From an uncultured Campylobacter sp. (GTDB lineage Bacteria; Campylobacterota; Campylobacteria; Campylobacterales; Campylobacteraceae), in assembly GCA_963519515.1 (NCBI GenBank), contig CAUQNJ010000002.1, forward strand, positions 51,953-115,952: a stretch of 64,000 bases of DNA, written 5' to 3'. Of this stretch, positions 4,661-13,879 are shown in pieces. Numbering within the stretch: the stretch's first letter is position 1; each line of letters begins with the position of its first letter. The position numbers and the translations under genes are program-made. The notes beneath the pieces are model-generated. The model worked only from the letters and a program-made list of their open reading frames with translations. It was not told where the DNA came from and made no database searches.

Positions 4661-5731
<1,071 letters not shown>

Positions 5732-6468: not shown

Positions 6469-6544
6469 GGTCGCTTAGCTCAGCTGGTAGAGCGCCACCC
6501 TTACAAGGTGGATGTCGCAGGTTCGATCCCTACAGCGACCACCA
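6469..6544 (+). tRNA. tRNA-Val (anticodon UAC)
   Basis: GGTCGCTTAGCTCAGCTGGTAGAGCGCCACCCTTACAAGGTGG...AGCGACCACCA. The acceptor stems pair, the anticodon loop is CTTACAA, and CCA is encoded. Confidence 0.95.
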
Positions 6545-6604
6545 TTTTGAAATCCTTGGATTTCATACTTCTTTAGCACTTGCGCTGCGAGTGTGATTTT
6601 TGGT

Positions 6605-6681
6605 GCGACGGTAGTTCAGCTGGTTAGAATGCCGCCCTGTCACGGCGGAGGTCGTGGGTTCGAGCCCCATTCGTCGCGCCA
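6605..6681 (+). tRNA. tRNA-Asp (anticodon GUC)
   Basis: GCGACGGTAGTTCAGCTGGTTAGAATGCCGCCCTGTCACGGCGG...TCGTCGCGCCA. The anticodon loop is CTGTCAC. Confidence 0.95.
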
Positions 6682-6692
6682 CTTCTTACGAT

Positions 6693-6768
6693 GTCTTGCT
6701 AGCTCAGTAGGTAGAGCATCTCACTTTTAATGAGGGGGTCGTTGGTTCGAATCCAACGCAGGACACCA
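6693..6768 (+). tRNA. tRNA-Lys (anticodon UUU)
   Basis: GTCTTGCTAGCTCAGTAGGTAGAGCATCTCACTTTTAATGAGG...GCAGGACACCA. The anticodon loop is CTTTTAA. Confidence 0.95.
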
Positions 6769-6846
6769 CTTTTATTACTAATTAAATCGCAAATTTTATG
6801 ATTGATCGGTTATATCTAAAAAAGCAAAAATAAGTAAGGATATAAA

Positions 6847-7308
6847 ATGAAATTTTTTCTCATCATAATTAGTATATTTCTTTATATTTATATTATTCTT
6901 TCGGTGCTAAGTTTTTCACCTTGTGATATTAACGATATGTTGAGGCAAAACTACAATCGTATGGAGCAAAAATGCAGATTAAAATTGATACGACGGGCTA
7001 ATAATGGCAACAGCGGGGCGCATAGGTGACTTTTTTATTTTTATGAGCGATATTTTTTAGATAGATATTGTGTAGATAAAAAGGCGCAGCAAGAATTAGA
7101 CAAAGAAGAGCTAAATTTTATTAAAAAATTTCATTCTGGAAATTTAGATCTATGCACAAATAACGACTTTATAGTTGGTTTATTAAAAAAGTGCGTTTTG
7201 AGGGAGGGAAATTTCACATTGTGTACCGAGCGGATCGGAAAGGAAAAAGAGATTAATATGGATGAAGTCATACATCTATATTACGCGGATAGAAAGCCGA
7301 AAGAATAA
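6847..7308 (+). pseudogene. small membrane-anchored protein interrupted by an in-frame TGA (paralog of 7317..7652)
   Basis: The same frame continues for 93 codons after TGA 7027-7029. The joined product (TM helix, SPCDINDM..., KAQQELDKEELNFIKKF...) aligns along its length with the 7317 ORF (SASCDIKDL..., EEVLNELDQEEIEFLKKL...). Confidence 0.6.
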
Positions 7309-7316
7309 GAGATTTC

Positions 7317-7652
7317 ATGAAAAATAAAATTTACTTTATTGCCGCCGCTATAATATTATTTGCGTGGATATTTTATCTATATAAAGAGCAAAGCGCCTCT
7401 TGCGATATAAAAGATCTTTTTATGGGCAATTCTGAAATAACAAAAGAGTGCAGGATCGTCATAATAAAGCAATTTGAAAAGAACGGCAACCCGCGCGCAT
7501 ATAAAAGGCTGAGTTTGGTTTATGGAAAAATTTTAAGCGAAAAACCGACAGAAGAGGTTTTAAATGAGCTAGATCAAGAAGAGATAGAATTTTTGAAAAA
7601 ATTGTATCCTGATTCAGAAATTTTATCTAAAGAGTTGCCAAGCAGAAAATAA
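7317..7652 (+). CDS. small N-terminally anchored hypothetical protein (island family A)
   Basis: 111 aa with an N-terminal TM helix. Paralog of the disrupted 6847 gene. AT-rich island context. Confidence 0.6.
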   Translation: MKNKIYFIAAAIILFAWIFYLYKEQSASCDIKDLFMGNSEITKECRIVIIKQFEKNGNPRAYKRLSLVYGKILSEKPTEEVLNELDQEEIEFLKKLYPDSEILSKELPSRK

Positions 7653-7728
7653 TCAATTTTTATAAATATAAATTTGTCATAAAGATGGCTAAATGTTTAA
7701 TAAAGAATGAAAAAAGGATAGGTGGTTA

Positions 7729-8115
7729 ATGGAGTTAGAACTTTTATACCGAAATTCAACCAATTCTGATAAATTCAGCATCAATTCGTTTGTTGGGAAA
7801 TTTATCTATCAAAAAACTTGGTCGGATTGCGATTATTGGGAGTTGGATAAAGCTTTAATGCAAATTTTGAGCTTTTATCATGATAAAACGCTTCCAAAAG
7901 AAATTTTCGCCGCAATACTAGCGATATTTAATGATGTTATCGGCGTAGAGGACAAATCGGAAATTTATGTAAGCAATATATTGTGTGCGAAAAACAGCGA
8001 CGGCGTGGTGCCTAGCATATATGATAGATTTGAAAGATTAAACGTTCTGTGCAACAGCATCGTATTCAAAGAAAAGCTTAGCAATAGCGGTTTTTGGTAT
8101 GCTCCAAAGGATTGA
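7729..8115 (+). CDS. hypothetical small acidic protein (island family B, copy 1)
   Basis: 128 aa. Shares NSF(V/I)G...WSDxDYWxL...L..IL..Y..K.LP.EI...(I/D)RF.R with the next ORF. Confidence 0.6.
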   Translation: MELELLYRNSTNSDKFSINSFVGKFIYQKTWSDCDYWELDKALMQILSFYHDKTLPKEIFAAILAIFNDVIGVEDKSEIYVSNILCAKNSDGVVPSIYDRFERLNVLCNSIVFKEKLSNSGFWYAPKD

Positions 8116-8119
8116 TGCA

Positions 8120-8515
8120 ATGAATCTTGTAAATTTTTATAGAAATACCGCATTTGATGATAGATATGATGCCAATTCGTTCATAGGTATGATTTTGGAT
8201 AATAATCTATGGTCCGATGATGAGTATTGGAAATTGGAAGCCGATTTAAAAAAGATTTTGCAGCATTATAAAAACAAAGAGTTGGACCCAGAAATAATGC
8301 AAGGCATTATTTCTATTTCTAATGACATATTTCTAAACGGAAGTTGGCGCGACGTAGATATAGACGCAAAAAGCGAATGTTTTAAAACGTATGAATATCA
8401 AGAAGATACAAAGCCAAATATTTTCGATAGATTTCGTCGCATAAAAAGCTTATTATTGGCGGTTGCTTCAGGGGATGAAAATTTTTATAAAATCAAATTT
8501 TTCTATGAAAATTAA
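8120..8515 (+). CDS. hypothetical small acidic protein (island family B, copy 2)
   Basis: I prefer the ATG at 8120 (AAAGGA RBS 9 nt upstream; N-terminus MNLVNFYRNTAF aligns with MELELLYRNSTN of copy 1) to the track start at 8099. Confidence 0.6.
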   Translation: MNLVNFYRNTAFDDRYDANSFIGMILDNNLWSDDEYWKLEADLKKILQHYKNKELDPEIMQGIISISNDIFLNGSWRDVDIDAKSECFKTYEYQEDTKPNIFDRFRRIKSLLLAVASGDENFYKIKFFYEN

Positions 8516-8598
8516 TATAAATGATCTTTGCTTCGCAAATAAGGTGTATAATTTAGCAAAAGCAAAAATTATGGTGGATAGAGACGAAAGGGCATAAA

Positions 8599-8940
8599 AT
8601 GACATATATAAAAACATACCCCGATATGGTAGAAATGAGTGATTTTTTTGGTTTTTATCCGGATGAAATAGATAGTGATATTGGAAAATATACGTTTGAA
8701 ATAGACGGGCTGATATTTACATATTGTATAGTCGAGGGATGGGTGGAAATTACTATAAAAGCAGGCGGAAAGACGGCTGTGGAATTTACCGCCGAATGCA
8801 TCGAGTCCTTAAAAATTAGAAGAGATAAAGATGGCGAATTTATAGAAATAGGACAAAATTTTGCTATAGACAGAATGGTACAGATAGAGTTGTATATAAG
8901 ACCGAAAATTTTATTAAAATATGCGAGTTTAGAATGCTAG
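8599..8940 (+). CDS. hypothetical small protein (island singleton)
   Basis: 113-aa ORF on the same strand with island-like AT-rich codon usage. No recognisable motif. Confidence 0.5.
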   Translation: MTYIKTYPDMVEMSDFFGFYPDEIDSDIGKYTFEIDGLIFTYCIVEGWVEITIKAGGKTAVEFTAECIESLKIRRDKDGEFIEIGQNFAIDRMVQIELYIRPKILLKYASLEC

Positions 8941-8948
8941 ATGAAACT

Positions 8949-8978
8949 CACATCCCAATAAAAGGAAACCCAAATGCA
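8949..8978 (+). repeat. conserved cassette junction J1 (CACATCCCAATAAAAGGAAACCCAAATGCA)
   Basis: This 30-mer, containing an RBS and an ATG, recurs at 11461, 11879 and (in 3' part) 12319, each time immediately 5' of a family C gene. Confidence 0.75.
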
Positions 8979-9032
8979 AATTGATGGAAAAAGATATTTA
9001 ATAAAGGTACGCTTTTATTTAGGCTATGTCTG

Positions 9033-9365
9033 ATGGCTTCTTTTGAATTGCAAGAGAAAAATATTGCACACCGAACATTGGAACGCTATTTATCACCTGG
9101 AGAAATGGTAGATATGCTATATTTTTCTTGTGAGCAGGCTTTGGAAGAGGAATTTAAATTTTGTTTCTTATACTACGAAAGAGATGCACTAAAAGAACTT
9201 ATGGAGCTTATGGATAAATATCTTAAAGACAGCAGCTTACTGGAAGGTATAGGCGAATATCTAGTCTATCACAATAAATCCTGGATAGAGGTCAGGGAGT
9301 TGGCTTTAAAAACAATCCATATTTTCGGATACGATTTAGATGACTTTAACTATGACTTTGATTAG
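9033..9365 (+). CDS. island family C member, N-terminally truncated by a 1-nt deletion (ancestral start ATG 8974)
   Basis: The C-terminal two thirds closely match 11904 and 12338 (LVYHNKSWIEVRELALKTIHIFGYDL). The paralog-type start MQIDGK at 8974 runs into TGA 9031-9033 after a 1-nt deletion relative to copy 11904. Confidence 0.6.
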   Translation: MASFELQEKNIAHRTLERYLSPGEMVDMLYFSCEQALEEEFKFCFLYYERDALKELMELMDKYLKDSSLLEGIGEYLVYHNKSWIEVRELALKTIHIFGYDLDDFNYDFD

Positions 9366-9377
9366 ACTTGGTTCAAA

Positions 9378-9728
9378 ATGCGGTTTCAAATGAATAAAAA
9401 GACATTTTTAACTATTTTATCGGTAATAATCGAAGATGGCGATTATATCTCTTTATGGGAAATCGTTTGGGAATTAAATTCTATTAACATTGCCAATTCG
9501 CTTAAAGTAGCGAAAAAAATTTTATTGTCCTTATACGAGCAAGGTTATATAAGATTGTTTAGTTCAAATTGGGGTTATGATACAGAAACAAAAGAGATAT
9601 GTGATAAATCTGAAATTTTAAATATTTTAAGGGATGATAAAAATTATGAGCCGGTCGGCGTAAATAGCAAATATTTTTGCGTAACAGAAACAGAGCAGGG
9701 AAAAATTTATTATGCAAAACAATACTAA
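9378..9728 (+). CDS. hypothetical small protein (island singleton)
   Basis: 116-aa ORF, tightly packed on the same strand. No recognisable motif. Confidence 0.5.
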   Translation: MRFQMNKKTFLTILSVIIEDGDYISLWEIVWELNSINIANSLKVAKKILLSLYEQGYIRLFSSNWGYDTETKEICDKSEILNILRDDKNYEPVGVNSKYFCVTETEQGKIYYAKQY

Positions 9729-9760
9729 AATGCGAAAAACAATAGTTTGGACGGTATAAA

Positions 9761-10372
9761 ATGAGAGTAAAAGCGCTTGATTTAAATTTAAACCCATATG
9801 TCTATTTCTTTAGCGAAGCGGAAGATTTTAGGTTTAAGATTTTTAAAGATTTTCAAGCCGTGAGCGGGAAAAGATCGCTGGATTTTTATGAGCTTGAGGC
9901 GTTTAGCCTAATGAAAAGCACCGAAGTCTATGAGACCGACTCTATCGCCAGCACATTAATTCATAATTTTAGTTTATGCGATGAGAATGTAAAAGATATT
10001 TTAATAATGCTATTTGGGCAGTTTTATCTAAATAATTTCATAGATACCGACATAAAATATAAAACTAGCGCCAATATAAATTTAAATATGAAAAAATTTG
10101 AAGAATGGAAAATTTTAAGAGAAAATTTCTTTTATAATTTAGATAATTTTGTAGCCCGCTCATACGAACCTCTAAAAAATTATACTCGCGCAGACAGCGC
10201 CTTTTGGGAGGAGCTGGATCGGTGGTGCCATTACAATATGTATATGTTTATCGCAGAATGCGGCAAAAAATATTATGATGAAATTTTAATTCCTAGCCTC
10301 TACAACAAATACGAACACATAGAGGTCGATATCGACGAAGAGGGAAATGTAACGAAGTGGTACGGAATATAA
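9761..10372 (+). CDS. hypothetical protein (island singleton, 203 aa)
   Basis: Longest ORF in the island. Acidic, aromatic-rich, no recognisable catalytic motif. Confidence 0.5.
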   Translation: MRVKALDLNLNPYVYFFSEAEDFRFKIFKDFQAVSGKRSLDFYELEAFSLMKSTEVYETDSIASTLIHNFSLCDENVKDILIMLFGQFYLNNFIDTDIKYKTSANINLNMKKFEEWKILRENFFYNLDNFVARSYEPLKNYTRADSAFWEELDRWCHYNMYMFIAECGKKYYDEILIPSLYNKYEHIEVDIDEEGNVTKWYGI

Positions 10373-10388
10373 AATTTAAGAGAATAAA

Positions 10389-10742
10389 ATGGCGAGAGGA
10401 AGAAAAGCACTTTTACAATCACTTTTTGCTTTAGCATCAATTGAATTTCAAACCAAGTATATTGATAATGCCGATGCAGATGCCGATGTATATACATCGC
10501 CGGAAGAATTACTAGAGGACCTAAGTAGTGCCTGCATAGAGGCGCAATCATTTAAGGAAGAATTTACGCAAGATGAATTAGAACGATGTGAAGTAATGAG
10601 GGATAAGATAAAAAGTCTTCCCAATGAAGATATATATAAAACGCCTCTTTGGGAAAAACTACGTAAAGAAGCGAAAGATTTTTTAAATTTTATGGGTTAT
10701 AATGTAAGCGATATCGACGATAGCATTTTTAAGCAATTTTAA
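10389..10742 (+). CDS. island family C member (divergent)
   Basis: LFALASIEFQTKYID...SPEELLEDL...WEKLRKEAKDFLNFMGYNVSDID aligns with LSLMASLEYQDKYIV...WIEVRELALKTLHIFGYDLGDFD of 11904. Confidence 0.6.
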   Translation: MARGRKALLQSLFALASIEFQTKYIDNADADADVYTSPEELLEDLSSACIEAQSFKEEFTQDELERCEVMRDKIKSLPNEDIYKTPLWEKLRKEAKDFLNFMGYNVSDIDDSIFKQF

Positions 10743-10903
10743 TTTTAGCCTTATGAATTTGTAGTATTAAATTTACATACAATTATAGGGCAAAAGTAAT
10801 GATATTTTAAAAACGCTTTCGATGTTAAAATTTATGAAATATCACGCCGCGCCGTAAAGTGGTCAGAAATTTCTTTGAGACAGGATTAAAGAGTAGGGGA
10901 AAA

Positions 10904-11383
10904 ATGATAGAAGTAGTGATTGACTTTGATGAGCTGCAAAAAGACAGAAGATATATTGATGAGTGGCATGATTATTGCCCCAAAGAAATAGAGCATAAGT
11001 TATACTCATATTTATCCGAAAAGCTGTCTTTACCGCTACGTATCGGTCCTGATGCATTCGCGGACTTCTTTTGGTTTCTACGATTTAAGGAATGGAAAGA
11101 CTACAGCGAGGAAGAATGGGAGCAATATGAAGATAAGGACGAGTGGGAAAGCTATAGCGAATACATCGAAGAAAAAGAAGAAAACTCGAGATATGGGTTA
11201 AAAAATAAGCAAGGCGTTCGAGACGATTTAAAGTTGATTTTCTTAAATTTTAATGCATTTAAGAAAAAATACAGCGATTTGGCTAAACAGCTGCTAGATG
11301 TGATAAAATTTACGCTCTTGGAAACCGTTAAATACCCAGATCACGATGACTTGCTTGATATTCAAATAGAAATTCGAGGCTAG
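10904..11383 (+). CDS. hypothetical highly acidic protein (island singleton)
   Basis: I prefer the ATG at 10904 (AGGGGA RBS) to the GTG at 10859. Contains a W/E/D/Y-rich stretch (EEEWEQYEDKDEWESYSEYIEEKEE). Confidence 0.5.
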   Translation: MIEVVIDFDELQKDRRYIDEWHDYCPKEIEHKLYSYLSEKLSLPLRIGPDAFADFFWFLRFKEWKDYSEEEWEQYEDKDEWESYSEYIEEKEENSRYGLKNKQGVRDDLKLIFLNFNAFKKKYSDLAKQLLDVIKFTLLETVKYPDHDDLLDIQIEIRG

Positions 11384-11460
11384 AAGATTGTGGGGCTACG
11401 ATAATAAATTTAAGTATGTGAAAATTTTAAAAATATATTACGATATAATGCGCGCAAAAC

Positions 11461-11490
11461 CACATCCCAATAAAAGGAAACTCAAATGCA
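11461..11490 (+). repeat. conserved cassette junction J2 (CACATCCCAATAAAAGGAAACTCAAATGCA)
   Basis: 29 of 30 identical to J1. Ends in the start codon of the 11486 ORF. Confidence 0.75.
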
Positions 11491-11914
11491 GAAAAATAAT
11501 GCACAAAAGGCTTTTATCGTCGAGCCTTTATATTGTCTTGCATCGAGAAAACATCAGATTAGATATATAGATAATTCTACTATCGATGAATATGCAACAC
11601 CGGGCGAATTAGTCGAATATGTATATAATCCTCTAGAGATAGCCCAGAGACCGGAATACAAATTTCTATTTACAGAAACGGAATTAAAAGCTATAGCAGA
11701 GTATAAAGAGATGATCGATTATTTTTATAGCAAATATGACTACGATGATATATATGATAATATGCCTGAAATTTGGAAAAAGATAATGGAGAAGTCATTA
11801 AAACTACTGAATATACTTGGTTTCACTCTTGATGATTTTTATGAGTGTGGGGATTTAAAATCCAAAACCAACGAAACCCACATTCCAATAAAAGGAAACC
11901 CAAATGCAAATTGA
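11486..11914 (+). CDS. island family C member (divergent) whose 3' end reads through junction J3
   Basis: LYCLASRKHQIRYID...TPGELVEYV...LKLLNILGFTLDDF matches family C. The last 13 codons (ETHIPIKGNPNAN) are the translated junction repeat, which overlaps the next gene's start at 11904. Confidence 0.6.
   Translation: MQKNNAQKAFIVEPLYCLASRKHQIRYIDNSTIDEYATPGELVEYVYNPLEIAQRPEYKFLFTETELKAIAEYKEMIDYFYSKYDYDDIYDNMPEIWKKIMEKSLKLLNILGFTLDDFYECGDLKSKTNETHIPIKGNPNAN
11879..11908 (+). repeat. conserved cassette junction J3 (CACATTCCAATAAAAGGAAACCCAAATGCA)
   Basis: 29 of 30 identical to J1. Ends in the start codon of the 11904 ORF. Confidence 0.75.
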
Positions 11915-12299
11915 CGGAAGAGAGATATTCTACAAAGGTAGTCTTATGTTTCATTTAAGCCTAATGGCTTCTTTGGAATACCAGGATAAATATATCGTTC
12001 ATCCCACAAAGGACTACTATACATTAGCAGACGAAATAGTAGATTGGCTATGTGATGAATGCAAAAATGCTTTATTGGAACAATTTGAATTTTGCTTCCT
12101 GCCATACGAGAGGGATGCGCTAAGAGAACTTAAGGAGCTCATAGATAAGTACACTGAAGACGACAGTATATTAAAGGGGGAAGAAGATGGCTATTACTTG
12201 GTCTATCAGAACAAATCTTGGATAGAGGTCAGAGAGCTAGCTTTAAAAACTTTACATATTTTCGGATATGATTTAGGCGACTTTGACCTATTATATTAA
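11904..12299 (+). CDS. island family C member (full length)
   Basis: 131 aa, MQIDGREIFYKGSLMFHLSLMASLEYQ...LVYQNKSWIEVRELALKTLHIFGYDLGDF. Close paralog of 12338 and 9033. Confidence 0.65.
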   Translation: MQIDGREIFYKGSLMFHLSLMASLEYQDKYIVHPTKDYYTLADEIVDWLCDECKNALLEQFEFCFLPYERDALRELKELIDKYTEDDSILKGEEDGYYLVYQNKSWIEVRELALKTLHIFGYDLGDFDLLY

Positions 12300-12318
12300 A
12301 CTCACGGAGTCAGCACTT

Positions 12319-12342
12319 AAATAAAAAGGAAACCCAAATGCA
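12319..12342 (+). repeat. conserved cassette junction J4 (partial: AAATAAAAAGGAAACCCAAATGCA)
   Basis: The 3' part of the junction repeat is retained directly upstream of the 12338 ORF. Confidence 0.6.
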
Positions 12343-12727
12343 AATTAACGGAAAAGAGATATTTAGGAAAAGCGGGCTTATGGTTAATCTATGTCGTATG
12401 GCTTCTTTGGAATATCAAGTTGATCATTTGATACATCCTGCGGTTGAATATTACGAAAGCCCATCGGAAATGGTAGAATTTTTATATACCGAATGTAAAA
12501 ATGCCTTATTGGAACAATTTAAATTTTGTTTCCTGCCATACGAAAGGGATGCACTAATGGTGCTTGTGGAACTTATAGATAAAAATTTTAACGACCGCGG
12601 CTTATTAGAGGCAGACGGTTACGAATACCTAGTCTATCATAATAAATCATGGGTAGAAGTCAGAGAGCTAGCCTTAAAGACTTTGCATATTTTCGGCTAC
12701 AAACCATATAGCTTTAACTATGATTAG
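12338..12727 (+). CDS. island family C member (full length)
   Basis: 129 aa, MQINGKEIFRKSGLMVNLCRMASLEYQ...LVYHNKSWVEVRELALKTLHIFGY. Confidence 0.65.
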   Translation: MQINGKEIFRKSGLMVNLCRMASLEYQVDHLIHPAVEYYESPSEMVEFLYTECKNALLEQFKFCFLPYERDALMVLVELIDKNFNDRGLLEADGYEYLVYHNKSWVEVRELALKTLHIFGYKPYSFNYD

Positions 12728-12859
12728 ACCCGGATTAGACTTGGTAGAATGAAATTTATCGTATATATCTTTACTCAGCTGCTATTCCTAAGCGCCTGGA
12801 CTCTGCTTGGTTGTATACAGCGAAAATAAAACCGACTCCACGCAAACGAATAGTTTTAT

Positions 12860-12991: not shown

Positions 12992-13879
12992 CTAGATCAT
13001 CTTTCCGATGAGTTTTTCTTTAAATTCCTTGTAAATTTCAGGCCCTGCGTGTTTGTATTCGCTCGTCAGCCTGTTGTGAAATTCCGCCATATCGCCGCCG
13101 CTTTCGCGGTAGAGCTTGATCGCGTTTCGCCTTACGGCGCCGTCTTTTAGGTCGCTATCGTAGGTGATGCTTGCGTATCGCGTCCGCGCGCCGTCCTTGA
13201 TCTCGCGGTAGGCCTCGCAGCCTTTGGCTCTGCCGAGTTTCGCGACGCACGCGGCATAGAGGGCTTGCAGGCTCACGCACTGGGGTATCAGCGCCTCCGC
13301 CGCGGCAAGGTCTGCTTTGGCGATTTTAAAATTTGCAGCCTTTTGTTCCTGTTGCACGGCCTTCGGCTCCTGCTTTGCGGTTTTGGGCTCCTTTTTCGAG
13401 GCTTTTGCCCCTTGCTTTTGGGTTTTTGGCTCTTGCTTTGTAGCTTTCGGCTCCGCTTTTTGGGCTTTTTTCTCCGCTGTGCCGCTTGCTTTGCTTTGTT
13501 TTGCGCTCGCTCCTGCGGCATGCGAGGCTAGACTGATCTTTTCAAATTTAGGATTTTTGCGGTAGTTTAGATCGTTAAAGAATTCTATCACGTCGTCGTA
13601 AAATTTGTCGTTGCTGACGATGCCGATCTTGCCCTCTTGCCCGCAGAGCTTGCCCATCAAAAATACGATGATCTTATCGGCGAAGTCCTTTCTTTGCTTG
13701 CCGATCGTGAAAACCTCGCCTATGCTAACGCCCATCTTGGACAGGCGCGCAAGGGTCAAGGCGTCGATCTTTTTAGCGGTGTTGGAGACGATATTCAGCT
13801 CGTCGCCCTCTTTGAGATTTACGACGTCGAATATATTATCGACGTCGATATTTTCGTCGTCTATGATAAAGCGTGTCAA
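12992..13879 (-). CDS. NYN/LabA-like (PIN-fold) domain protein with a Lys-rich linker and an uncharacterised C-terminal domain
   Basis: The N-terminal approx. 115 aa carry the NYN pattern: RFIIDDENID, FADKIIVFLMGKL and IGIVSNDKFYDDVIEFF. Next comes about 70 aa of (A/E/P)K(Q/T)-rich linker, then an approx. 110-aa helical domain. Confidence 0.5.
   Translation of the reverse strand: MTRFIIDDENIDVDNIFDVVNLKEGDELNIVSNTAKKIDALTLARLSKMGVSIGEVFTIGKQRKDFADKIIVFLMGKLCGQEGKIGIVSNDKFYDDVIEFFNDLNYRKNPKFEKISLASHAAGASAKQSKASGTAEKKAQKAEPKATKQEPKTQKQGAKASKKEPKTAKQEPKAVQQEQKAANFKIAKADLAAAEALIPQCVSLQALYAACVAKLGRAKGCEAYREIKDGARTRYASITYDSDLKDGAVRRNAIKLYRESGGDMAEFHNRLTSEYKHAGPEIYKEFKEKLIGKMI

Follow-up and report, generated by a model that had tools for sequence, protein, structure and literature searches.

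What kind of locus is the block of AT-rich DNA, densely packed with small genes, that lies immediately 3′ of a tRNA-Lys gene in an uncultured, human-oral Campylobacter? The block (positions 6769-12730, ~6 kb), hereafter the island, is contained in a 64,000-nt stretch of the uncultured Campylobacter sp. contig CAUQNJ010000002.1, referred to as the window, from whose first letter all positions are counted. It is very probably a heterogeneous poly-immunity (orphan immunity) locus, in which immunity genes of unrelated families are assembled without toxins. A preliminary description of the same DNA had proposed this reading from architecture, and gene-level evidence now supports it for 9 of the 13 open reading frames (ORFs)—two genes of the immunity family Imm41, five of a family termed C here, and the singletons o10 and o7. 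This evidence comprises the assignment of families, the adjacency of homologs to toxin genes, scars of toxin tails, variability between strains, and purifying selection. The related loci and contigs compared with the window carry L-numbers (L001 and so on); along 9 kb, the window is identical to the 93-kb oral-metagenome contig L011. The island proteins correspond to the RefSeq entries WP_314166246-257 of "uncultured Campylobacter sp.," which are labelled hypothetical or, in the case of family C, "phytanoyl-CoA dioxygenase."

A cluster of tRNA-Val, tRNA-Asp, and tRNA-Lys genes (6469-6768, + strand) precedes the island, with the end of tRNA-Lys placed at 6768 by ARAGORN:

6693-6768, + strand: tRNA-Lys(UUU), found with ARAGORN; last of the Val-Asp-Lys cluster and left boundary of the island.

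The GC content is 0.30-0.36 from ~7000 to 12500, compared with 0.44-0.60 in the flanks, and reaches 0.43-0.55 again past 12500; both the AT-rich block behind tRNA-Lys and the return of host-like GC content, as described previously, were thus confirmed by ARAGORN and the GC profile. All 13 small ORFs lie on the + strand, as the ORF list bears out, and form three paralog families (A, B, and C) plus four singletons (o5, o7, o8, and o10). This earlier grouping was reproduced by BLAST for family B (33% identity, E 1e-20), by five members for family C (o6, o12, and o13 mutually 63-66% identical; o9 and o11 25-32% identical to other members), and by Smith-Waterman comparison for family A (score 112 vs. 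31 +/- 6 in shuffles), whose paralogy was missed by BLAST. Family B, family C, and o10 are mutually unrelated, and o5, o7, and o8 show no relation to family C in profile-profile comparison. Spacers range from -17 to ~160 nt, so that the upper end of the range given previously (10-160 nt) stands and the lower end is replaced by overlaps. Similarly, the acidic, aromatic-rich character ascribed to the products was found in 11 of the 13 (pI 4.4-5.2; 11-19% W+Y+F), the exceptions being both family A copies, with a pI of 7.7 for the intact copy and 10.0 for the truncated pseudogene product. The TATAAT-like boxes pointed out in the spacers are no more frequent than expected by chance (33 sites vs. 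28.7 +/- 5.1 in shuffles).

The preliminary description had held that none of these families could be assigned to a named immunity family. This does not hold for family B, both copies of which exceed the Pfam curated cut-off for Imm41 (the Pfam curated cut-offs used were 26.9 bits for Imm41 PF15592, 25 for Ntox30, 24 for Ribonuclease PF00545, and 22 for Colicin_immun):

7729-8115, + strand: family B copy 1, Imm41, 128 aa; PF15592 33.1 bits.
8099-8515, + strand: family B copy 2, Imm41, 138 aa (131 aa from the alternative start 8120); PF15592 44.0 bits.

The two matches cover positions 2-106 and 1-98, respectively, of the 112 positions of the model, and the exact protein of copy 2 is encoded on 20 oral-metagenome contigs. 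Imm41 has been recorded in both homogeneous and heterogeneous polyimmunity loci, epsilon-proteobacteria included (Zhang et al., 2012, PMC3482391). No cognate toxin for the two Imm41 copies was found in the loci examined, and PDB sequence searches with copy 2, o8, o10, and o12 returned nothing.

The largest family of the island, family C, is connected to a toxin by its gene neighbourhood. Its five copies are as follows:

8974-9365, + strand: family C copy o6; frameshift near 8990, with the true ATG (8974) in the other frame; ORF listed from 9033.
10389-10742, + strand: family C copy o9, 117 aa; divergent subtype.
11486-11914, + strand: family C copy o11, 142 aa; chimera with a toxin-gene end.
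11904-12299, + strand: family C copy o12, 131 aa.
12338-12727, + strand: family C copy o13, 129 aa; final gene of the island; RefSeq WP_314166257.1.

Family C genes lie directly 3′ of 16 distinct Ntox30 toxin tips, which they overlap by 4-14 nt or behind which they start within 2 nt; these tips include those of full-length TpsA proteins (L017, L057, and L028) and of soil contigs with 55% GC (L090 and L091). In six independent tips, the Ntox30 match is at or above the Pfam cut-off (L026, 27.5 bits; L028, 25.1; L079, 28.1; L086, 25.4; L088, 25.0; and L090, 30.1), and each of the six has a family C gene directly next to it. The published Ntox30 motifs—RxH, R, and THIP—are present in the tips behind which family C lies. 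In L017, a 671-aa TpsB transporter (ShlB, 254 bits; POTRA domains) is followed by a 2250-aa TpsA with a TPS domain (143 bits), haemagglutinin repeats, and a C-terminal Ntox30 match; this protein terminates in ...KTNETHIPIKGNPNAN* (asterisks denote stop codons here and below), its final codons and the ATG of a family C gene overlap, and a further seven such genes lie downstream. Across the related loci, ~72 of 81 toxin tails have a family C gene next to them at a fixed offset of -11 or -14 nt, and those without one mostly lie near a contig end.

The copies in the window are themselves close to such toxin-linked genes. Thus, o9 shares 97% identity with the gene that directly follows the L026 Ntox30 tip (27.5 bits) and with its L079 counterpart, o6 shares 94% with the immunity gene that follows the L015 toxin tip, and o12 shares 87% with the one that follows the L019 tip and 80% with the gene following a CdiA-like protein of at least 941 aa in L028; for o13, the best toxin-linked relative is 72% identical. 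When species-representative genomes were scanned with the family C alignment, 76 loci were obtained, all from oral Campylobacter metagenome-assembled genomes (MAGs) and many of them containing the island itself, and an exhaustive profile search gave 194 clusters at 50% identity, nearly all of stand-alone proteins of 110-140 aa. One member from forest soil (55% GC), ~31% identical to o9, overlaps by 4 nt an Ntox30-tipped ORF (30.1 bits) that terminates in ...SGHIPIRGNPVLGQP*. Because even this distant member is located behind an Ntox30 tip, the toxin-immunity pairing is conserved far beyond Campylobacter.

Family C is, on the strength of this neighbourhood, a candidate for the cognate immunity family of Ntox30, a domain for which no immunity family is listed by Zhang et al. 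(2012, PMC3482391; the later work of Ma et al., 2017, is outside this comparison). The routes of export listed for Ntox30 in the same paper are type II, VI, and VII, not type V, and the loci described above provide evidence that Ntox30 is borne by two-partner-secreted proteins in Campylobacter, which is a new element. An AlphaFold model of o12 is an all-alpha bundle (pLDDT 84, pTM 0.81). Most family C proteins are named "phytanoyl-CoA dioxygenase" in public databases, those of the o9 type being named "hypothetical protein"; since the proteins are of ~130 aa, all-alpha, and without a Pfam match to that enzyme family, the name is implausible and looks like a propagated misannotation.

Two assignments of family C were considered and rejected. 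The NCBIfam model NF047838 ("SCO4402 family protein"), first seen with o12, matches 1 of 9 close and 12 of 134 distant members (best E 8.8e-6), over the full length and far below the curated cut-off of 50 bits; the link would be remote at best and, NF047838 itself being uncharacterised, adds no functional information. A 1010-aa eukaryotic protein, P0361 (L089:6001-9033, GCA_030705265.1, on an 8.3-Mb chromosome), which appeared to consist of five tandem family C repeats, is an artefact: it is composed of N/Q-rich low-complexity repeats, trypsin genes lie alongside, and a family C profile built locally gave no match to it.

Family C genes occur behind giant ORFs in a second type of locus of this lineage, a contact-dependent inhibition (CDI) locus adjoining trpBA. 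Its GC content is 0.40 in cdiA and 0.36 in the family C array, both low like that of the island, compared with 0.54 in trpBA, and the two locus types co-occur in single MAGs (e.g., L017 with L062, and L015 with L040). Module arrays of tip plus immunity gene are found in the CDI loci of the lineage (L015, L035, L055, L077, and L079), with orphan tips of 90-150 codons. The tips in the loci near trpBA (L055:3-4124; L035:3-1325; L079:421-8925; L073:3-1619; L041:2-1618) are varied and include a colicin-E3-type Cytotoxic domain (L055, 115 bits), a barnase-type Ribonuclease, and a tip ending in ...NGHHRLQAAIELG..., as well as two 538-aa fragments without a Pfam match. Behind every one of these lie small candidate immunity genes, one of which contains DUF7683.

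Evidence from toxin adjacency extends to two of the singletons, for the first of which the start given previously (GTG 10859) is corrected to ATG 10904:

10904-11383, + strand: singleton o10, 159 aa; dN/dS 0.09.
9378-9728, + strand: singleton o7, 112 aa from ATG 9390, which is probably the true start; dN/dS 0.24.

(dN/dS denotes the ratio of nonsynonymous to synonymous substitution rates.) In L035, an ORF of at least 440 aa, the C-terminus of which is Pfam Ribonuclease PF00545 of the barnase type (25.6 bits, cut-off 24), ends in a 4-nt overlap with a 95%-identical homolog of o10, and DNA homology between L035 and the window begins 2 nt before ATG 10904. Judged by this neighbour, o10 is the immunity gene of a barnase-type RNase toxin tip. 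A 34%-identical homolog of o7 in L115 overlaps by 4 nt a toxin-like ORF of at least 184 aa ending in KIFRIPLKGNPVLK*, and a matching remnant, VVKIPLKGNAVLNE*, precedes o7 in L012, L025, L032, and L082; o7 is the probable immunity gene for a toxin with the ...IPLKGN... tail. A relationship of the L115 ORF to Ntox30 is not claimed, the score of 9.6 bits being marginal against a maximum of 5.6 in 500 shuffles.

If these genes derive from toxin-immunity modules, are traces of the toxins left? The preliminary description had stated that the island contains no toxin, integrase, or secretion gene. This is correct as far as genes are concerned—none was found among the window ORFs, and no ORF in 6769-12830 matches a toxin domain—but the window does contain four scars of the last codons of a toxin gene (ETHIPIKGNPNAN*), each overlapping the start of a family C copy (o6, o11, o12, and o13):

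8940-8984, + strand: toxin-tail remnant, last 14 codons, DETHIPIKGNPNAN*; overlaps the true o6 start; 100% identical in tblastn to the L055 and L086 tip ends.
11455-11499, + strand: degenerate toxin-tail remnant, QNHIPIKGNSNAEK*; overlaps the o11 start.
11855-11914, + strand: toxin-tail remnant within o11, LKSKTNETHIPIKGNPNAN*; forms the last 19 codons of o11 (11855-11911).
12298-12348, + strand: decayed toxin-tail remnant, KLTESALK*KGNPNAN*; overlaps the o13 start.

The remnants span only 12-19 toxin codons, the 35-nt direct repeat D4 translates to the toxin-gene end, and the ribosome-binding site AAAGGAAA lies 10-12 nt before the ATG at family C junctions. In o11, the toxin end is fused in frame to a family C body and is 100% identical (tblastn) to the end of the L028 CdiA-like protein; the chimera is conserved at 96-97% identity in the islands of L025, L032, and L055.

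Variability between strains was examined in ten complete related islands, which occupy the same chromosomal site—between the tRNA cluster/SLT/KdsA on one side and PIN7-like/YCII/ComEC/GlnA on the other—and measure 4.3-7.3 kb with a GC content of 0.33-0.34. The head of the island (family A and the two Imm41 genes) is conserved, and the tail consists of 2-5 family C genes, the window having the most copies. The middle is variable and draws on the 387-aa gene described below, o5, the o7-o8 pair, a SUKH-like gene, o10, a 90-aa gene, and a Colicin_immun gene; the Colicin_immun match reaches 35 bits (cut-off 22), and the SUKH-like match is weak. No two of the ten gene contents are the same. Three checks had been attached to the preliminary description, and all three came out in favour of the poly-immunity reading: homologs beside toxin genes were found (family C, o10, and o7), profile and structure searches assigned no unrelated conserved function, and the locus varies between related genomes.

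The remaining genes of the island, together with one insertion site, are the following:

6847-7306, + strand: family A pseudogene; in-frame TGA at 7027-7029 (codon 61), with the same frame continuing to 7306.
7317-7652, + strand: family A gene, 111 aa; hydrophobic segment at the N-terminus, then a conserved Cys.
8599-8940, + strand: singleton o5, 113 aa; dN/dS 0.21.
9761-10372, + strand: singleton o8, 203 aa; dN/dS 0.18; always 3′ of o7 in related islands.
8589-8591, no strand: presence/absence site of the 387-aa gene, which is absent in the window; BLASTN breakpoints exactly at 8589/8591 in L001-L003 and L005-L010.

Intact 153-aa orthologs of the family A pseudogene are present in L005, L007, L020, L060, and others, and the segment is missing from L001-L004 and L008. 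Both family A copies have an N-terminal hydrophobic segment, and the 111-aa product, to judge from its sequence, probably sits outside the cytoplasm; its gene has a dN/dS of 0.15 over 29 alleles. No Pfam, NCBIfam, PADLOC, or PHROG match was obtained for the 111-aa family A protein, o5, or o8, deep searches with o8 and family A turned up no homologs outside the lineage, those found being at least 79% identical, and the AlphaFold model of o8 is unusable (pLDDT 42). The 387-aa gene (L001:3479-4642) occurs in most related islands, has a dN/dS of 0.13, and is bigger than a typical single-domain immunity protein; it had no Pfam, PADLOC, or PHROG match.

Outside the island, the largest ORFs are housekeeping genes (PheT, S1, SerA, Ffh, ArgJ, and others), and the upstream neighbours are the tRNA cluster, an SLT transglycosylase, and KdsA. 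The KdsA (DAHP_synth_1) gene (4661-5701, - strand) contains a ~100-aa insertion rich in A, S, G, and Q that matches the GC peak of 0.60 at 5001-5500, and the length of its ORF is 324-388 aa across related MAGs. On the right flank, a gene adjoining the island in all related genomes (12992-13879, - strand) has a 295-aa product, in which a PIN7-like domain at the N-terminus (27.8 bits, short of the cut-off of 34) is joined to a repetitive middle rich in K/A/E/Q.

Several points weigh against reading the island as a poly-immunity locus. Family A looks membrane-anchored or exported, as the other cassettes do not, and for its two copies, o5, and o8, no toxin-linked homolog, family match, or usable model was found, so that these four count as poly-immunity cassettes only by association, through their position. 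Within family C, o11 has no close partner, its best toxin-linked relative being 33% identical. A one-by-one scan of 134 relatives gave no consistent Pfam family, and Foldseek comparison of the family C model with the PDB returned only generic helical bundles (best E 0.9); with neither a Pfam model nor a structural relative, the immunity role of the family rests on conserved gene neighbourhood. In two of the eight Ntox30 matches, those of the near-full-length L017 and L057 proteins, the scores (21.6 and 21.7 bits) are below the cut-off of 25. The reach for cdiBA was the 64-kb window, with the rest of the genome out of view; no TPS or haemagglutinin-repeat protein was found among its ten largest remaining ORFs, all of which are housekeeping genes. 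Finally, we infer expression, physical neutralisation of toxins, protective benefit, and the recombination mechanism from these genes and their relatives.

Could the island, then, be the dead wreckage of a former CDI locus or of orphan tip/immunity modules, which has lost its toxins, has no present function, and persists by chance? The toxin-tail scars and the o11 chimera would fit such an origin, as would the frequency of truncated cassettes in related islands and the decay in the window itself, where the two lesions noted previously were both verified: one nonsense copy, with TGA at codon 61 of the ORF from 6847, and one frameshifted copy, altered near 8990 in the ORF listed from 9033. However, intact copies outnumber broken ones in the window by 11 to 2, the locus is kept at one site, from the tRNA cluster to PIN7/YCII/ComEC, in ten species-level genomes, and the true CDI loci of the lineage are located elsewhere, by trpBA, and are found together with the island in single MAGs (e.g., L017 and L062). 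Furthermore, dN/dS, computed over 9-29 distinct alleles per cassette family, is 0.07-0.28 in every family tested, indicating that the cassettes are maintained genes. This explanation is accordingly considered unlikely.

A second alternative is that the island is the cargo of an integrative element targeting tRNA-Lys, with genes serving the element itself (exclusion or addiction) rather than defence against the toxins of neighbours. In accordance with this, the island abuts the 3′ end of the tRNA, its GC content is far below that of the flanks, and a 408-aa tyrosine integrase is encoded upstream of it in eight related loci (L003, L004, L020, L025, L032, L068, L082, and L094). However, the window has no integrase, the tRNA 3′ end is not repeated at the distal boundary of the island (one match in total at up to 3 mismatches), every related genome sampled has the island at this site, and toxin-adjacent homologs would be left unexplained. 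In L001, L003, L004, and L005, moreover, only the last 16 nt of tRNA-Lys (CAACGCAGGACACCAC) stand before the island, with the integrase element upstream; because of this 3′-end copy between them, the integrase element is regarded as separate and the island as resident downstream DNA. An origin as integrative cargo is therefore judged decidedly improbable. The integrase element itself (L003:1-3486; L068:3402-7038; L082:2688-6373) is ~3.5 kb long with a GC content of 0.35 and ~2 kb free of ORFs. In L068 and L082, its far side is formed not by tRNA-Lys but by a tRNA-Arg(CCT) after a histidine-kinase/response-regulator pair, an arrangement that could be a rearrangement of two tRNA-linked elements or a MAG mis-join.

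That the island is instead a hotspot of anti-phage defence or anti-defence cassettes, small genes acting in phage-host conflict, as the preliminary description had allowed, is very improbable: a variable low-GC array of small genes beside a tRNA is typical of defence islands too, but PADLOC matched 0 of 10 products at E up to 0.1, PHROG matches were sub-threshold, no phage genes lie nearby, and 9 of the 13 ORFs either belong to an immunity family or have homologs next to toxins.

How would a poly-immunity island of this kind act, and how might it have been assembled? Its small, mostly acidic cytoplasmic proteins would each bind and block one type of toxin domain injected by neighbouring bacteria, and the toxins met would chiefly be the C-terminal tips of two-partner-secreted CdiA-like proteins of contact-dependent inhibition that circulate in the same lineage. 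For the five family C proteins, the targets to be neutralised would be variants of the Ntox30 tip, a predicted RNase, and for o10, a barnase-type RNase tip; the Imm41 pair would act on the toxin classes recorded for Imm41, and o7 on the toxin with the ...IPLKGN... tail. The cassettes may have been copied out of toxin-immunity modules by recombination, the breaks falling among the final codons of the toxin gene or at the start codon of the immunity gene, and the conserved 35-nt toxin tail together with the ribosome-binding site may provide a homology patch for the gain, loss, and duplication of family C copies. A more far-reaching proposal, which is offered tentatively and for which the odds are somewhat less than even, is that family C is an unrecognised, fairly widespread Ntox30-specific immunity family and that the toxin-gene end plus ribosome-binding site is a built-in junction, through which the tRNA-Lys site could take up, duplicate, and rearrange immunity genes with no need of a dedicated recombinase—a Campylobacter counterpart of rAID arrays aimed at CDI toxins.

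As a kind of locus, the island is already known; what is new is the candidate Ntox30 immunity family, the presence of Ntox30 on two-partner-secreted Campylobacter proteins, and the toxin-tail scars. An oral Campylobacter lineage, apparently widespread given the 20 oral-metagenome contigs that carry its Imm41 gene, keeps a fast-changing store of antidotes aimed at contact-dependent toxins circulating in its own population, most likely for survival of the toxins of neighbours, and the island agrees with an earlier suggestion that bacteria of oral biofilms stockpile immunity genes. Ntox30, a predicted RNase domain of many phyla, gains a directly testable candidate immunity family, and the RefSeq label of family C is corrected. 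The toxin-tail scars offer a readable record of the excision of immunity genes from toxin loci. At present, the family C, o10, o7, o5, o8, and family A cassettes would escape metagenomic surveys based on counts of toxin and immunity markers.

Orphan cdiA-CT/cdiI modules are reportedly found downstream of cdiBAI loci. Like those arrays, the island has immunity genes derived from CdiA tip/immunity modules. Unlike them, it adjoins a tRNA cluster rather than the downstream side of cdiB-cdiA-cdiI, and it includes Imm41 (and, in other strains, Colicin_immun), families that none of the loci examined showed beside a CdiA tip. Because the tips are cut down to 12-19 codons, the island contains no displaced toxin tip that recombination could restore; with no usable tips and no position downstream of cdiBA, it falls outside the strict definition of an orphan cdiA-CT/cdiI array.

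The rAID-1 arrays of gut Bacteroidales are defined by a tyrosine recombinase that lies 5′, is XerD-like, and shares more than 44% identity with BF9343_RS08045, and by at least two co-directional downstream genes with a GC content of at most 41% (Ross et al., 2019, 10.1101/471110). The island resembles them as a low-GC, co-directional orphan immunity array (13 ORFs, GC 0.30-0.36) with repetitive junctions and, in some strains, a 5′ tyrosine recombinase. Identity between orphan and toxin-linked immunity proteins is 72-97% for four of the five family C copies (33% for o11), compared with 32-91% in rAID-1. The window contains no recombinase, and where one is present in the lineage, it is split from the array by a tRNA-derived attachment-site copy, unlike in rAID-1. 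The island further differs in belonging to Campylobacterota rather than Bacteroidota, in that its toxins are type Vb tips rather than type VI effectors, and in its junction repeat, which is demonstrably a toxin-gene end and not an integron-like site. Without the recombinase, and with another phylum and another route of toxin secretion, the island is not a member of rAID-1.

The closest description is that of heterogeneous polyimmunity loci, which consist of at least four tandem immunity genes from at least two unrelated families, uninterrupted by toxin genes, in the same orientation and with short spacing, and which vary in content between strains, an adjacent recombinase being frequent but not obligatory; such loci are enriched in the human oral microbiome (Zhang et al., 2012, PMC3482391). 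The island likewise joins mutually unrelated families (Imm41 twice, family C five times, and o10), is free of toxins save for the short remnants, has all its genes on one strand with spacers that are short or negative, and differs in the number and type of genes between strains, with ten contents in ten islands. An adjacent recombinase is absent in the window, the tyrosine recombinase upstream in eight related loci being a separate insertion. Unlike the loci of Zhang et al. (2012), it contains family C and four other cassette types absent from the families described there, keeps toxin-gene 3′-end scars at its cassette junctions, and is fixed at one site past a tRNA cluster across the whole lineage. 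Like those loci, it belongs to a host from the human oral microbiome.

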